Positions 34,197-43,718 of a DNA stretch of 64,000 bases are shown piece by piece; position 1 is the first letter of the stretch, and every line of letters starts with the position of its first letter. Position numbers and translations under genes: made by a program. This stretch comes from Pseudomonas phage vB_PaePA10145phi1_MKR2. The stretch lies in the sequence record PV565008.1, one strand, 5' to 3'. Under the pieces are notes generated by a model, which was not told the DNA's origin, made no database searches, and saw only the letters and a list, made by a program, of their open reading frames with translations.

Positions 34197-34277
34197 ATAA
34201 TACATTCAAACCATTTTAAACAGTATATTACTAACTTGATATTTAACCTTCAATTAATGTAAAAAGGAATCTATACC
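34197..34277 (+). promoter_or_regulatory. conserved early-promoter element copy (…AAACAGTATATTACTAACTTGATATTTAACCTTCAATTAATGTAAAAAGGAA)
   Basis: About 70 nt identical to 36055-36128; includes the GTAAAAAGGAA RBS. Confidence 0.55.
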
Positions 34278-34793
34278 ATGTTCGAAATTAAATTTTCTAA
34301 AAAAGAACAATTCCCTGGCCGTGGTCACTGCATCGAACTTTATGGTGATTATGTCACCGAGCGTGTATGGCATGCAGTGAAACAAATGGTTGAATGTAAC
34401 ATTACCAATCACGAGTTTTATAAGGCAAAAGAAGGTTTCTGTGTATTCTTCCAAGGTGGGCATGATAACCCTCATGGGAAATGGATCCTTCTGGAATTCT
34501 GGGTAGACGACATCGAGAAGACTCGTGAGTTCGTTCGTCTCTTGACCATCACTATTAATCGAGTATTGACGGAGCGTTTTACTCAAATCTGCGTTAACCC
34601 TAATCAAATGGGTTATGCAGATGGGGCAGGTGCATATACTGTACTTGGCGAAATCCATAAAGAAACTGGATGTCGTGTTAATTGGGGTAGTCCGACTACA
34701 CCCATTACCTTCTATCCAGAAAATAACTTGGAACATCGTAAAGTACTCGACTTGTGTGAAACCTTCGAACTCCCAGTAACTAAATGGGTATAA
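34278..34793 (+). CDS. hypothetical protein (171 aa); first gene of the GC-rich/codon-optimised island
   Basis: ORF directly downstream of the promoter element. Confidence 0.55.
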   Translation: MFEIKFSKKEQFPGRGHCIELYGDYVTERVWHAVKQMVECNITNHEFYKAKEGFCVFFQGGHDNPHGKWILLEFWVDDIEKTREFVRLLTITINRVLTERFTQICVNPNQMGYADGAGAYTVLGEIHKETGCRVNWGSPTTPITFYPENNLEHRKVLDLCETFELPVTKWV

Positions 34794-34810
34794 TTAGAGG
34801 ATAAAGTACC

Positions 34811-35047
34811 ATGTACATCGTTATCCACAGAGACGAGTCTGAAAGACATGAATTGACTGTAGGTGATCCTAAAGATCTTATCGCGATCTTAGTCATTCTG
34901 GAGAATAGTGATAAAGTCATTGAATATAAGGTTATCGATTCGGATGTTGGTGTAATCAAGGACTTTAGATACTCATTTGGTTGGGGTAACGGGTTCTTCA
35001 CTAAAAATGCAAAAGATAATTTTAACTGGAATCAATCGAGGAAATAA
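34811..35047 (+). CDS. hypothetical protein (78 aa)
   Basis: ORF with AGAGGA RBS. Confidence 0.45.
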   Translation: MYIVIHRDESERHELTVGDPKDLIAILVILENSDKVIEYKVIDSDVGVIKDFRYSFGWGNGFFTKNAKDNFNWNQSRK

Positions 35048-35049
35048 TA

Positions 35050-35262
35050 ATGGCTAACAGTAAAATCAGTGGCGAAGCTGTAATGAAATATCTACGTTCT
35101 CGAAATGACCACGTGGATTTTATGCGAGATAAACTGTCGGTTTACATTGAAAATGATGAAGTGGTAGTTAAGATTATAGATACTACTTCAGGTGGTTCTG
35201 CAACACACCACTCAGGTTATGATGTAAACAACTTTGAAAGAACGTATGGTCAAACTAACTAA
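35050..35262 (+). CDS. hypothetical protein (70 aa)
   Basis: TAATAATGG coupling with the upstream gene. Confidence 0.45.
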   Translation: MANSKISGEAVMKYLRSRNDHVDFMRDKLSVYIENDEVVVKIIDTTSGGSATHHSGYDVNNFERTYGQTN

Positions 35263-35293
35263 ATAAATTAGTAACACTTATTGGCGACATACA

Positions 35294-35320
35294 CCCTCCC
35301 TTCGGGGAGGGCTTTATTTT
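35294..35320 (+). terminator. rho-independent terminator (CCCTCCC-TTCG-GGGAGGG)
   Basis: Hairpin plus CTTTATTTTC. Confidence 0.6.
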
Positions 35321-35363
35321 CAATATAGACATATTTTTTTAATACATTAGTTGGAGTTTAAAA

Positions 35364-35696
35364 ATGTTTAATAAAAATTTTATCAATGGTATTCAAATTT
35401 TTGTTGCCGCAACTACTGTTGCTACAACTATTGTTAAGTTAGTCGAATCATACAACAAATTAAATGAAGAAAAATCGGCTAACGATGTATGTAAGAAAAT
35501 CCATATGGAAATCCATAAATTAACTAGCCTGTTTATCGAACAAGATATACCTAATGAAGAACGCTGTGTTAGGTTACGTAAAACTGTTGATACATTAGTT
35601 AATAAACACTGCTCTAAATTAACTGGCCGGCGGCGACTCAGGGCTGTTGCAGAAATCACTCGACATGTAGATGACTATTGTCGTCTGTGGAAATGA
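35364..35696 (+). CDS. hypothetical membrane protein (110 aa, N-terminal TM)
   Basis: N-terminus IQIFVAATTVATTIVKLV is hydrophobic; GGAG RBS. Confidence 0.45.
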   Translation: MFNKNFINGIQIFVAATTVATTIVKLVESYNKLNEEKSANDVCKKIHMEIHKLTSLFIEQDIPNEERCVRLRKTVDTLVNKHCSKLTGRRRLRAVAEITRHVDDYCRLWK

Positions 35697-35777
35697 AATA
35701 ATACATTCAAACCATTTTAACCAGTATATCACAACAGTGTAATTAAACCTATTAAATCAGTAAAAAGGAATCAAACT
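35697..35777 (+). promoter_or_regulatory. early-promoter element variant (…CCAGTATATCACAACAG…GTAAAAAGGAA)
   Basis: Shares ATACATTCAAACCATTTTAA and GTAAAAAGGAA with the 34197 copy. Confidence 0.45.
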
Positions 35778-36038
35778 ATGACAACTTTCCTGACTTTTAA
35801 ATCTGACGAAGACTTGGAGAAAGAAGCAATCCGTCGTGCACGTGCTATCATGGGTTTCCGTGGTGACCGTGATGCAGCTACTCGTCAGGTATGCATCAAT
35901 CCTGTACGAGGTAAGGATTACCGTAACTGGTTATCCCATAGCGCTACCTGGAAAGATGGTAACATTGTTGTTGATGAAGATAGTCTCATTGAGCTAGCCC
36001 GTGCCATCATTGATGAGACCTACCTGCACGATATGTAA
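35778..36038 (+). CDS. hypothetical protein (86 aa)
   Basis: GC-rich; optimal-codon usage. Confidence 0.5.
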   Translation: MTTFLTFKSDEDLEKEAIRRARAIMGFRGDRDAATRQVCINPVRGKDYRNWLSHSATWKDGNIVVDEDSLIELARAIIDETYLHDM

Positions 36039-41870: not shown

Positions 41871-41955
41871 ATATTCAATAACTCCGAAATAATCAAAACT
41901 ATTTAATATATCAAAAGGAAACTTTCAATGTTCGAAACTCAAGTCGCCCTTACTG

Positions 41956-42213
41956 ATGAACTCTGACAAGCTACGAGGGATACTGACTGACCTCGGTATA
42001 CTCCCACCTCGCTTTGTTGAGAGCACCGATATCCGTGTCGGCAACTTCCGATTTCAGCGCTGGAAAACCCAGGTCCTCAAACCTGCTGCTCCTGGTTATC
42101 GGAAGTGGATTGACGTGGGTAGGTTAGAATGGGTGGAGGTTAAATACCACCTCAACAAATTACTTAAAGAGAATAATCTCAATATCCAAGAAGAAAGTAA
42201 TCGGTCTGGATAA
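41956..42213 (+). CDS. hypothetical protein (85 aa) downstream of a 12-codon leader ORF (41928..41966)
   Basis: No SD of its own. The leader ATG at 41928 carries the AAAAGGAAA RBS and overlaps the ORF in another frame. Confidence 0.35.
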   Translation: MNSDKLRGILTDLGILPPRFVESTDIRVGNFRFQRWKTQVLKPAAPGYRKWIDVGRLEWVEVKYHLNKLLKENNLNIQEESNRSG

Positions 42214-42307
42214 CCTCCGGAAGCTCCTGTCAGATCAACTCAACCCGCCACGTCAGTTAACAGACGCTGTACGCGAGAAAAATCTTCACAGCAAGTAACG
42301 ATATAAG

Positions 42308-42329
42308 GCCCCTCCCTTCGGGTAGGGGT
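42308..42329 (+). terminator. terminator-like hairpin (CCCCTCCC-TTCG-GGTAGGGG)
   Basis: Imperfect GC hairpin with TTCG loop, ~95 nt after the 85-aa ORF stop. Confidence 0.4.
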
Positions 42330-42359
42330 TGTCTATTCATTTCTTAACAGGAAATTCTA

Positions 42360-42695
42360 ATGGAAGACTTCAAAGAAATCGAGATTTACAGTATGACGTT
42401 CATCGACCATTCGGAAAATGCTTCTCGTGTAGTGATTGCACAGATCACTACTCTGGATGATCGTACTGTTTACGGGGTAATGGAGGTCAATGGTTTCGGC
42501 GGTCAGGCCACTACTAATCTGCGTCGGTTCGAACAGAACCGTCAACACGCTCGTTACTTCTTCACCAAGTCGGTAGCCACTGCTCACGCCGAGGCTTACG
42601 TCAAGTACCTGAATGACTACATGGTCGAACAAGACTACCTCGATATGAATACCGGCTACAACTACACCGAATTTATGAACATGGTAAATATCTGA
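42360..42695 (+). CDS. hypothetical protein (111 aa)
   Basis: GC-rich ORF. Confidence 0.5.
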   Translation: MEDFKEIEIYSMTFIDHSENASRVVIAQITTLDDRTVYGVMEVNGFGGQATTNLRRFEQNRQHARYFFTKSVATAHAEAYVKYLNDYMVEQDYLDMNTGYNYTEFMNMVNI

Positions 42696-42702
42696 GGTCA
42701 TC

Positions 42703-43266
42703 ATGGACAAAAAATTGAAGGAATTCCAAGCAGTGACCCCTGGTGTTGATCGTTTCGTTTACTGTGAGAAGACTGACACCTGGCTTCCGAAGGCTACTCG
42801 TCCTCTGGATTGTCACCGTAATAAAAACGCGATAACAGCATTCGATAAAGCCAACGAAGAAATTCAAGAACGTTGGTTCTACTGGTGCATTGCATGGGAG
42901 AAAGCCTCTGTTCGACCTACCATGGAAACCGAACTCTGGAAGAACCCGTTCATCTCCGCAGAAGAGCGACTGGAGATTGCAGAAGGCGCCATTGCATTCC
43001 GCAACGAAGTAATCAGAAATCTTCAGGGTCGTTTGGTTTCACCGACTATCGCTGAGTTCGAACTTAACAAAGAAATGGTGGAAGCTATTCTGGATAGCGA
43101 ATACATCGTAAAAGATTTCGACCGGAACTCTGAAAATGGAGAAGTCGAACTGCGTTACCAAATATCCAATAACTTCCATACCCGAGAACTGGCACGTGAT
43201 ACTGTTCACCGTATCATCAATGCTCTCAAACAACTGACTCCGGTACGAAGTAAAAGGGTGGGATGA
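42703..43266 (+). CDS. hypothetical protein (187 aa)
   Basis: GC-rich ORF with GAGGTCATC RBS. Confidence 0.5.
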   Translation: MDKKLKEFQAVTPGVDRFVYCEKTDTWLPKATRPLDCHRNKNAITAFDKANEEIQERWFYWCIAWEKASVRPTMETELWKNPFISAEERLEIAEGAIAFRNEVIRNLQGRLVSPTIAEFELNKEMVEAILDSEYIVKDFDRNSENGEVELRYQISNNFHTRELARDTVHRIINALKQLTPVRSKRVG

Positions 43267-43269
43267 ATA

Positions 43270-43686
43270 ATGGCGATGCAACATAAAAAGGATGCTGAAC
43301 TTTACACCCACAAAGAGGATGGTGGGATTTACTATTACCATGGCTTGGCTCATGGTACTGGTGACCAACGCGGGGAACTGTTGCACATCTACAGTGATTA
43401 CTTCACTGACATGATGTACTACCGTAACCACACCTGGTCAACTCGGATGGAACGTGTTTCTGCTCCAGGTCTTCGCCTGAGCCGTTCCTTGCACCCGCAC
43501 CTCTGGATCACCACTCTGATCGGTTTGATTGTCATTATCATTACTCGGGTTGTTTTCGGCACCGAGTTCAATGCAATCACACCCCAAGAGATCGTCGGTA
43601 CGGCCATTGCAGGTGTACTGGCTTTAGGTGTTCCGAGTTTCATCCTGCACCAACTGTACAAATGGAAGTACAAAAAAGCCTACTAA
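43270..43686 (+). CDS. hypothetical membrane protein (138 aa, 2 C-terminal TM helices)
   Basis: LWITTLIGLIVIIITRVVF and IVGTAIAGVLALGVPSFIL are hydrophobic. Confidence 0.5.
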   Translation: MAMQHKKDAELYTHKEDGGIYYYHGLAHGTGDQRGELLHIYSDYFTDMMYYRNHTWSTRMERVSAPGLRLSRSLHPHLWITTLIGLIVIIITRVVFGTEFNAITPQEIVGTAIAGVLALGVPSFILHQLYKWKYKKAY

Positions 43687-43718
43687 AAAGAAGGTCGAGA
43701 CAACATAAAAGGAATTCC

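Follow-up and report, generated by a model that had tools for sequence, protein, structure and literature searches.

Patchy host-directed codon usage in the early gene cluster of a phiKZ-like Pseudomonas phage

Introduction

Why should a run of small early genes in an AT-rich phage be written in GC-rich, host-like codons? The question was raised by DNA of Pseudomonas phage vB_PaePA10145phi1_MKR2 (sequence record PV565008.1), analysed as one stretch of 64,000 nucleotides (nt) that is called the window below. An initial annotation, made from the sequence alone, had marked positions 34197-43700 as a contiguous block of about 20 early-promoter-driven genes with optimal codons, and had suggested that it could be a coherent, highly expressed, membrane-associated module. 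Comparison of the block with related phages, host codon preference and published expression data showed that the shift in composition is real yet patchy, with about half of the block genes carrying it. The explanation favoured here, with moderate confidence, is that the block is a mobile immediate-early accessory cassette, shaped both by selection for the codons of host tRNAs and by exchange with GC-richer phages of another genus.

Identity of the block

A megablast search with the block region gave matches in 55 Pseudomonas jumbo-phage records, the top ones being PA7 (99.5%) and KEN51 (99.1% nt identity). The adjacent 7.7 kb, containing terminase and the head genes PHIKZ025-028, was 99-99.9% identical to many phiKZ-like genomes. 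Compared with the annotated phiKZ and KEN51 records, positions 34197-43700 corresponded gene for gene to PHIKZ006-PHIKZ023 (gp6 to gp23 below). Orthology and synteny agreed, and per-gene nt identity to phiKZ was 94.8-100% for most block genes. To the left of the block lie DHFR (gp4) and then gp5, and to the right lies terminase on the opposite strand. From these matches the window is identified as a phiKZ-like jumbo phage of Pseudomonas aeruginosa, and the block as part of the known early cluster PHIKZ005-023. The uninterrupted run of 20-21 plus-strand open reading frames (ORFs) at 34.2-43.7 kb agrees with the contiguous block of about 20 genes described at the outset.

The phiKZ early region (NC_004629, 2.2-12.0 kb) and the block have gene set, gene order, early promoter motif and gp14 in common. 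In contrast to phiKZ, the isolate carries a full-length gp13 of 200 amino acids (aa), which is the PS119XW allele, with a 58-aa ORF just upstream. Its gp11 and gp12 form a single 248-aa ORF, and its gp15 and gp16 are only 94.8% identical. Unlike KEN51, fnug and KEN49, it has no insert of ~1.1 kb between gp19 and gp20.

No match of the block DNA outside phiKZ-family phages was found in the nucleotide search, so the host or prophage match that the initial annotation had named as evidence against its proposal did not appear. A Pfam search with all 20 block proteins gave nothing above threshold. The description of the block as encoding proteins of unknown function was thus upheld, gp14 being the single characterised member. 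Rfam returned seven tRNAs and nothing else in the whole window, and there is therefore no known RNA within the GC-rich spacers described below. No description of the codon and GC island was found in the literature on phiKZ codon usage or GC content, a check that did not extend to the phiKZ paper of Sau et al. (2005). The genes are already known; the codon and GC island in about half of them is modestly new.

Base composition and codon usage

The overall GC content of the window was 36.9%. In 1-kb steps two stretches stood out, 36-40 kb with a GC fraction of 0.43-0.47 and 42-44 kb with 0.46-0.47; all other parts except 54-55 kb had 0.28-0.41. Two cores were delimited within the block. Core 1 (36289-40619) had 45.0% GC and a per-gene GC content at third codon positions (GC3) of 0.45-0.53, and core 2 (41956-43700, with genes to 43686) had 46.5% GC and a per-gene GC3 of 0.45-0.58. 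The maximum for 400-bp windows within the block was 51%. The AT-rich interruption noticed earlier was found at 40.62-41.96 kb (35.9% GC), where the genes at 40676-41870 had a GC3 of 0.30-0.35. The shift did not start at 34.2 kb as had been proposed: positions 34197-36288 had only 36.6% GC, and the first six ORFs a GC3 of 0.26-0.41, with gp7, gp8, gp9 and gp10.1 at background composition and gp6 and gp10 intermediate. All window genes of at least 100 aa outside the block had a GC3 of 0.16-0.37, and three short ORFs there (48-64 aa) had 0.42-0.49.

Codon frequencies, block cores versus the rest of the window:
CTG: cores 43%, rest 7%
TTC: cores 80%, rest 39%
ATC: cores 60%, rest 26%
TAC: cores 73%, rest 27%
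AAC: cores 51%, rest 22%
ACC: cores 42%, rest 16%
TTA: cores 3%, rest 34%
CTA: cores 6%, rest 29%
CCA: cores 13%, rest 48%
ACA: cores 7%, rest 28%

CTG, ACC, ATC and TTC were raised as the initial annotation had listed them. CGT and GGT, also on its list, are dominant genome-wide anyway and were nearly unchanged in the cores. No rise was seen for GCG, ACG, GGG or GAG. The preference for C over T at the third position of Phe, Tyr, Ile and Asn codons corresponded to log-odds of 1.3-2.0 (cores versus rest, from codon counts), and third-position G amounted to 0.19 in the block versus 0.13 elsewhere. The codons most depleted in the cores (TTA, CCA and ACA) are those served by phage tRNAs. The low stop-codon density reported earlier was also observed: antisense ORFs of 239, 202, 183 and 160 aa lie opposite the block, and the antisense stop-codon density was 0.041-0.047 in the cores versus 0.069 elsewhere.

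Spacers between block genes had a GC content of 21-39%. Exceptions were two non-coding spacers, 42214-42359 (48% GC), which lies 3' of gp20 and terminates in a hairpin, and 43687-43964 (45% GC), which separates the block from the convergent terminase gene and has two hairpins on the minus strand and two on the plus strand. These two spacers could be remnants of coding sequence.

The seven tRNA genes of the window are Thr-TGT, two Asn, Asp, Met, Pro-TGG and Leu-TAA. The two tRNA-Asn(GTT) genes on the minus strand (20840-20916 and 22966-23042) are 100% identical and 2.1 kb apart.

Comparison with host codon preference

Genes were ranked over the full 280-kb phiKZ genome by a codon adaptation index (CAI) with rpsL, rpsG, fusA and rpoBC of P. 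paraeruginosa as reference. These reference genes favour CTG, TTC, ATC, TAC, AAC, ACC, CCG, TCC/TCG, AAG and CAG and shun ACG, GGG and CGG. In the block, host-preferred codons were up and host-avoided codons were not. The mean GC3 of phiKZ was 0.276 (standard deviation (sd) 0.078); 29 ORFs reached 0.40 or more, and 11 of these were contiguous gp10-gp23 genes. Further high-GC3 genes were gp109.1-115, ChmA (gp54) and the major capsid protein gp120.

The CAI averaged 0.132 over phiKZ, and 10 of the 14 highest-ranking genes were block genes (block versus rest of phiKZ, Mann-Whitney p = 1.5e-9). The genome maximum was gp21 (0.40); gp14 reached 0.31, and the major capsid protein and ChmA held ranks 8 and 12. 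After regression of ln CAI on GC3 the block retained a residual of +1.16 sd, positive in 12 of 13 genes, compared with -0.21 sd for the other genes with GC3 of at least 0.38. Since preferred codons rise, avoided codons do not, CAI lies above the GC3 trend and the spacers are AT-rich, the shift is codon-specific and directed towards the host, as had been claimed.

The initial annotation had named sheath and tube as the only other genes with this signature, which did not hold. The sheath gene had a GC3 of 0.285 and a CAI of 0.158, its raised GC content stemming from codon positions 1 and 2, and the tube gene was only mildly raised (GC3 0.355, CAI 0.206). A smaller patch of GC3-rich, high-CAI genes was seen in the other early cluster of phiKZ (gp109.1-gp115, phiKZ 110961-113373), where gp110 has the second-highest CAI of the genome.

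Homologous clusters in related phages

Homologues of gp14 were found in PS119XW (80% identity), EL (41%) and PhiPA3 (31%), and also in Phabio and Psa21. In PS119XW, PhiPA3 and EL the gene lies in a single early cluster between a gp104-like gene and the DnaB and major-capsid genes, which is the position of gp105-116 in phiKZ. These clusters (PS119XW gp112-gp137, PhiPA3 gp109-128 and EL ORF082-102) contain homologues of gp14, the gp13 family, gp10.1, gp20-23 and gp7, and resemble the block in their architecture of small plus-strand ORFs. In PhiPA3, homologues of gp12, gp115, gp7, gp20, gp112, gp14 and gp21-23 are interleaved. In Phikzvirus, unlike these three phages, the cluster is split, and the block part lies between DHFR and terminase. 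As other genera have one cluster near DnaB and the major capsid gene, the Phikzvirus arrangement is taken to be the result of a split or translocation. The codon bias recurs in two of these clusters, with a CAI above that of their own flanks in PS119XW (0.30 versus 0.19, p = 9e-4) and in PhiPA3 (0.41 versus 0.21, p = 7e-4).

PS119XW belongs to Pawinskivirus and has a genome GC content of 43.6%. Core proteins of the window and PS119XW were 47-70% identical in aa sequence, whereas block genes were 78-99.5% identical in nt sequence; the gp12 part was 89% and gp14 80% identical to PS119XW. Within Phikzvirus, allele classes of the block were only 75-85% nt-identical, compared with ~99% for flanking genes, and gp22-23 were missing from fnug and KEN49. 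On the strength of these sequence identities, recent exchange between the block, including much of its GC-rich part, and the GC-richer sister genus Pawinskivirus can be regarded as demonstrated. Gene flow from a GC-richer genus accounts for much of the placement of the GC-rich segments and for their CTG-type bias. Taken jointly, a 0.8-kb segment that is nearly identical in the other genus and the split, translocated cluster show that cassettes move between co-infecting jumbo phages. The foreign origin left open by the initial annotation was thus supported in part, as recent exchange of much of the GC-rich part with Pawinskivirus, and not as a host or prophage fragment. Conservation of the block among relatives was found at the level of homologous clusters in PS119XW, PhiPA3 and EL; between Phikzvirus isolates the gene set is mosaic.

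The ~1.1-kb insert between gp19 and gp20 is present in KEN51 (L002 10732-11855), fnug (L012 10701-11694) and KEN49 (L013 13568-14691) and absent from the window and phiKZ. Its ORFs encode 95, 101 ('holin') and 112 aa, and PS119XW carries a homologous 'holin' (gp130) inside its early cluster.

Expression in phiKZ

Expression values were taken from published phiKZ data (PMC10914614 supplement) and not from isolate MKR2. PHIKZ001-004 were at ~20 units similar to transcripts per million (TPM) at 10 min and gp24.x at ~10, and PHIKZ005-023 were already at 350-2360 units after 2 min, rising to 1700-7300 by 10 min (PMC10914614). The step in transcription from PHIKZ004 to PHIKZ005 was ~100-fold in these data. 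Summed over the same data, gp5-23 made up 30% of the phage coding-sequence signal after 2 min and 25.6% by 10 min, when the sister cluster gp102.1-116 contributed a further 18%. Within the block, early transcripts were most abundant for gp10.1. The ChmA transcript lags (166 to 1830 units), and sheath and tube are silent (PMC10914614).

In published mass spectrometry gp14 is the most abundant block protein, followed by gp15 and gp16. ChmA is the most abundant protein (log10 intensity 11.78, gp14 10.84) and yet has a CAI below that of seven block genes. In a transposon sequencing (TnSeq) preprint on phiKZ, orf1-20 fall within a largely non-essential region (PMC12676376). The high expression assumed in the initial annotation is hence real in phiKZ, where the block is transcribed early and very strongly, but it is not supported as a sufficient cause of the codon shift, as discussed below.

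Promoters, leaders and terminators

The following elements, all on the plus strand, were located:
33691-33727: early-promoter-like element 5' of gp5 (TATTCAAATGTATTTAAAGGGTATATTAC), with TATATTAC at 33720
34204-34267: copy 1 of a cassette formed by promoter and 5' leader (repeat family D1; 'promoter copy A'), with TATATTAC at 34224
35294-35311: intrinsic-terminator-like hairpin 3' of gp8
35705-35768: diverged copy of the promoter-leader cassette (TATATCAC), 73% identical to copy 1
36055-36118: copy 2 of the promoter-leader cassette, with 95% identity to copy 1
39037-39054: terminator-like hairpin 3' of gp14
40624-40653: terminator-like hairpin 3' of gp16

Early-promoter-like copies of TATATTAC with a conserved T-rich context upstream were present at 33720, 34224 and 36075, with a variant at ~35730, in line with the early promoters first proposed. 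No canonical TATATTAC copy was found upstream of the downstream units gp14, gp15 and gp21. Modules are flanked by nearly identical promoter-leader cassettes of 64 nt. A scan for sigma-70 promoters gave 28 sites versus 26.7 expected. This chance level was expected because the phage does not use host RNA polymerase.

An additional early promoter core (ATTCAAACATATTTAAACAGTATATTACTAACTTGATATT) was noted at 18859-18922 on the plus strand, within the minus-strand region of tRNAs and small ORFs; only its first ~40 nt are in common with the block copies. A common initiation leader, TGTAAAAAGGAA, followed by 7-9 nt and ATG, stands upstream of gp6, gp10.1, gp14 and gp15 (34249-34283, 36100-36134, 39097-39131 and 37885-37908) and holds a strong Shine-Dalgarno-like AAAGGA.

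Genes of the block

The genes, all on the plus strand, were as follows:
33779-34183: PHIKZ005 homologue, an early gene of AT-rich composition (GC3 0.27) with which the highly transcribed unit actually begins
34278-34793: PHIKZ006 homologue, GC3 0.37, signature weak or absent
34811-35047: PHIKZ007 homologue, GC3 0.40, signature weak or absent
35050-35262: PHIKZ008 homologue, GC3 0.29, signature weak or absent
35364-35696: PHIKZ009 homologue, 110 aa, N-terminal hydrophobic segment, GC3 0.26
35778-36038: PHIKZ010 homologue, GC3 0.41, CAI 0.283
36129-36278: PHIKZ010.1 homologue, 49 aa, N-terminal hydrophobic segment, AT-rich
36289-37035: 248-aa ORF, PHIKZ011 and PHIKZ012 in one frame, beginning of GC3-rich core 1
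37032-37811: 58-aa ORF with signal-peptide-like N-terminus and 200-aa ORF, 99.4-99.5% nt identity to PS119XW gp124-gp125
37909-39021: PHIKZ014 homologue, 100% nt identity to phiKZ gp14, protein 100% identical to PA7 and KTN4
39126-40127: PHIKZ015 homologue, GC3 0.48
40140-40619: PHIKZ016 homologue, GC3 0.46, end of core 1
40676-41870: PHIKZ016.1, 017, 018 and 019 homologues, GC3 0.30-0.35, AT-rich interruption
41956-42213: PHIKZ020 homologue, beginning of core 2
42360-42695: PHIKZ021 homologue, highest host CAI of the genome (0.40)
42703-43266: PHIKZ022 homologue, 91% aa identity to PS119XW
43270-43686: PHIKZ023 homologue, two C-terminal transmembrane segments, 90% aa identity to PS119XW
43687-44285: right end of the exchanged and translocated segment, comprising the GC-rich spacer, bidirectional hairpins and an 88-aa ORF (43965-44231)

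The region of the 248-aa ORF aligned to phiKZ at 96.5% identity, with a gap of 1 nt. Its N-terminal half was 88% nt-identical to the gp120 region of PS119XW, and its C-terminal half was 89% identical to gp123. PS119XW has the two halves as distinct genes, separated by two others. What had been described as a central transmembrane segment (residues 127-145) forms the N-terminus of the gp12 part.

In the 200-aa ORF (37209-37811) PHIKZ013, truncated in phiKZ, is present at full length, and this ORF was identical to PS119XW in aa sequence (99.5% nt); the 58-aa ORF was 98% identical to PS119XW in aa sequence. In the gp13 family (44 protein clusters) the N-terminal ~150 aa are highly divergent and the C-terminal ~35 aa (F..QHKPAPEGTVKELAAKYGKSISEIRRLKAEGLLHTL) almost invariant, the motif KPAPEGTVKELAAKYGKSISEIRRLKAEG being encoded at 37683-37799. 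The AlphaFold2 model of the 200-aa protein was all-helical (predicted local distance difference test (pLDDT) 80), with the C-terminal motif modelled as a helix-turn-helix. The helix-turn-helix protein of the initial annotation is probably this ORF. Pfam helix-turn-helix families gave only sub-threshold matches to the motif (Sigma70_r4, 18.9 bits; cut-off 24.1), and a Foldseek search of the model against PDB returned nothing with E < 1. A gp13-family gene always lies directly upstream of the gp14 homologue in phiKZ-like phages, PS119XW and EL. In phiKZ, where gp13 is truncated, a 16-aa remnant of the motif is found at 6049-6096.

An abundant early protein, gp14 is soluble and attaches to the 50S subunit by binding 5S rRNA (Gerovac et al. 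2024, PMC10914614). The AlphaFold2 model of gp15, from an alignment of four sequences, had a pLDDT of 40. The genes gp16.1-gp19 were 98-100% conserved among Phikzvirus. At the right end, 43687-44285 runs right up to the terminase stop codon, and 43266-44286 was 88% nt-identical to PS119XW (locus L009 19391-20408).

Hydrophobic segments were found in gp9, gp10.1, the gp12 part, the 58-aa ORF, gp19 and gp23. The supposed enrichment for membrane or secreted proteins was not significant, since 5 of 21 block ORFs contained a hydrophobic 19-mer versus 48 of 341 ORFs for the genome (Fisher p = 0.21). A coherent membrane-associated module likewise found no support, given the mosaic gene content between isolates and the soluble, ribosome-binding gp14 (PMC10914614).

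Explanations for the codon shift

According to the favoured explanation, the injected virion RNA polymerase would transcribe the block from the AT-rich TATATTAC promoters within 2 min, as established by the phiKZ literature and assumed for the MKR2 isolate. The block would encode small, mostly dispensable host-interaction proteins, such as the ribosome-binding gp14. Translation of its early mRNAs would have to begin immediately and against competing host mRNA, before the phage has produced any tRNAs of its own (among them Leu-UAA, Pro-UGG and Thr-UGU) or gained control of the cell, and selection may therefore favour the codons of abundant host tRNAs. This step is deduced from codon patterns and is backed by the similar bias of the homologous cluster in two other genera. 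Frequent recombination with GC-richer relatives (Pawinskivirus, 43.6% GC) would hold the cassettes off the equilibrium of the 37%-GC backbone. AT-rich block genes would be those that are lineage-specific or not recently exchanged, and part of an ancestral single early cluster would have moved to the DHFR/terminase junction in Phikzvirus.

Several observations weigh against selection for host codons in place. The absolute CAI of block genes is modest (0.27-0.40), and the host reference is a sister species represented by only ~2500 codons. The EL cluster has no CAI excess over its flanks. For gp14 the GC3 is 0.45 in the window compared with 0.53 in PS119XW, and 34% of the codons for the same amino acid differ; this difference is about that expected from neutral decay towards a GC3 of 0.26, and selection within phiKZ-like phages is therefore not proven. 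Leucine in phiKZ ChmA and major capsid protein is encoded by CTA (80% and 68%), with CTG at 2-5% and TTA at 0, and the leucine bias of the block towards CTG resembles that of the PS119XW capsid gene (CTG 90%). The CTG-type bias could accordingly reflect origin and not selection in place. Transcript level at 10 min and GC3 were uncorrelated in the two early clusters (Spearman rho 0.15, p = 0.38), and gp7, gp10.1, gp16.1-19 and gp105 are AT-rich though their transcripts are equally abundant. As AT-rich block genes are equally transcribed, transcript level does not explain the pattern. Abundance by mass spectrometry is also low for the GC3-rich gp10, gp12 and gp13 and high for gp14, gp16 and gp15.

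The preferred leucine codon is switched between the sister genera, and between early-cluster and abundant later genes (phiKZ gp54, 45648-47528, and gp120, 118268-120511; PS119XW major capsid gene, locus L009 23516-25741). TTA is absent from the ChmA and capsid genes despite a phage tRNA-Leu with anticodon UAA.

Among the alternatives, a pure compositional legacy deserves most attention, although it is considered rather unlikely. The cores would have been imported fairly recently from a GC-richer jumbo lineage with an early-cluster GC3 of ~0.5, and would now decay without codon selection. This fits the high nt identity of the block to PS119XW compared with the core proteins, the block GC of 45-46.5% near that of the PS119XW genome, and the CTG-type bias, which is like that of the PS119XW capsid and unlike the CTA type of phiKZ ChmA and major capsid protein. 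The window copies are also slightly AT-shifted relative to PS119XW (132 versus 99 synonymous third-position differences), and GC3-rich and PS119XW-similar segments largely coincide. Legacy does not explain why the cluster stands above its own flanks in PS119XW and PhiPA3, whose homologues have an aa identity (25-75%) too low to fit a recent import, nor why CAI exceeds the GC3 expectation, and gp16, gp20 and gp21 are GC3-rich without a match in the PS119XW locus compared. Polarised third-position singletons in the cores, a tiny and recombination-confounded sample (n = 18), were 8 GC-to-AT versus 10 AT-to-GC, compared with a neutral expectation of ~13:5. With the PhiPA3 and PS119XW clusters elevated, CAI above the GC3 trend and, weakly, these singletons, codon selection is favoured, with exchange adding contrast. 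Capture of host or prophage DNA has the direction of the codon shift, towards a GC-rich host, and nothing else in its favour, and is hardly credible. DNA matches are confined to Pseudomonas jumbo phages, and homologues of gp14, gp15 and the 200-aa protein occur only in jumbo-phage contigs and phage records, plus a few 'P. aeruginosa' entries on contigs of 213-305 kb. Pfam identified no domain, an integrase or mobility gene is absent, the GC3 of 0.45-0.58 is far below that of the host, and the use of GCG, GGC over GGT and GAG is not host-like. A host-derived genomic island was rejected on the jumbo-phage-only homologues, the low GC3 and the lack of an integrase.

Translational selection by expression level alone, whereby the block would owe its high GC3 simply to being expressed more strongly than any other part of the genome, is improbable. 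The top early transcript signal and top CAI ranks do coincide in the block, and ChmA and the major capsid protein also show a C-ending bias. However, transcript level and GC3 do not correlate within the early clusters, AT-rich neighbours are transcribed just as strongly, the GC3 of the sheath gene is at background, the most abundant protein, ChmA, ranks below seven block genes in CAI, and exchange between genera is left unexplained. Selection acting on the RNA or DNA itself is slightly less probable still. Early mRNAs would avoid AU-rich RNase E sites before the Dip inhibitor is present, or spurious AT-rich promoter and terminator motifs would be avoided. Such selection would be consistent with a shift limited to coding sequence of first-wave transcripts and with the increase of G-ending codons (0.19 versus 0.13), but not with co-transcribed AT-rich neighbours or with flat ACG, GGG and GCG. 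A further, speculative idea, to which only a small probability is given, is that a first-wave regulon is tuned to the tRNA pool of the uninfected cell (CTG, ACC and CCG, no TTA, CCA or ACA) and ChmA and capsid to another pool. If so, phiKZ infection would reshape tRNA supply or demand within minutes, and ready-to-express cassettes of promoter, leader and host-adapted ORF would be traded between jumbo-phage genera.

Comparison with known systems

phiKZ is a model nucleus-forming phage, and its first-minute proteins decide host takeover and counter-defence. The CAI provides a simple sequence criterion for candidates beside gp14, namely gp15, gp16, gp21-23 and the gp13 family. Cassette exchange is relevant to phage-therapy cocktails and to the use of GC islands as exchange markers. 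The understanding of how the phage works is unchanged by the finding.

Phage tRNAs complement late-gene codons, and the block is likewise depleted in codons served by phage tRNAs. Host-directed codon bias linked to time and expression, as in the block, is known from phages in which early genes differ in codon adaptation from those expressed late or strongly (for example Lucks et al. 2008, PMC2266997; Mioduser et al. 2017, PMC5683454). Unlike in such known codon adaptation, the most host-adapted genes in phiKZ are dispensable immediate-early ORFans and not structural genes, and the bias is patchy inside transcription units and entangled with recombination between genera.

The block can also be compared with mosaic accessory or 'anti-defence' loci (hyperplastic early regions). 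It differs from these in that its members, gp14 (needed on strain PaLo44) aside, have no shown anti-defence function. It resembles them in its small, non-essential early genes, in presence/absence and allele-class variation between otherwise near-identical genomes, and in the repeated promoter-leader cassettes at module boundaries.

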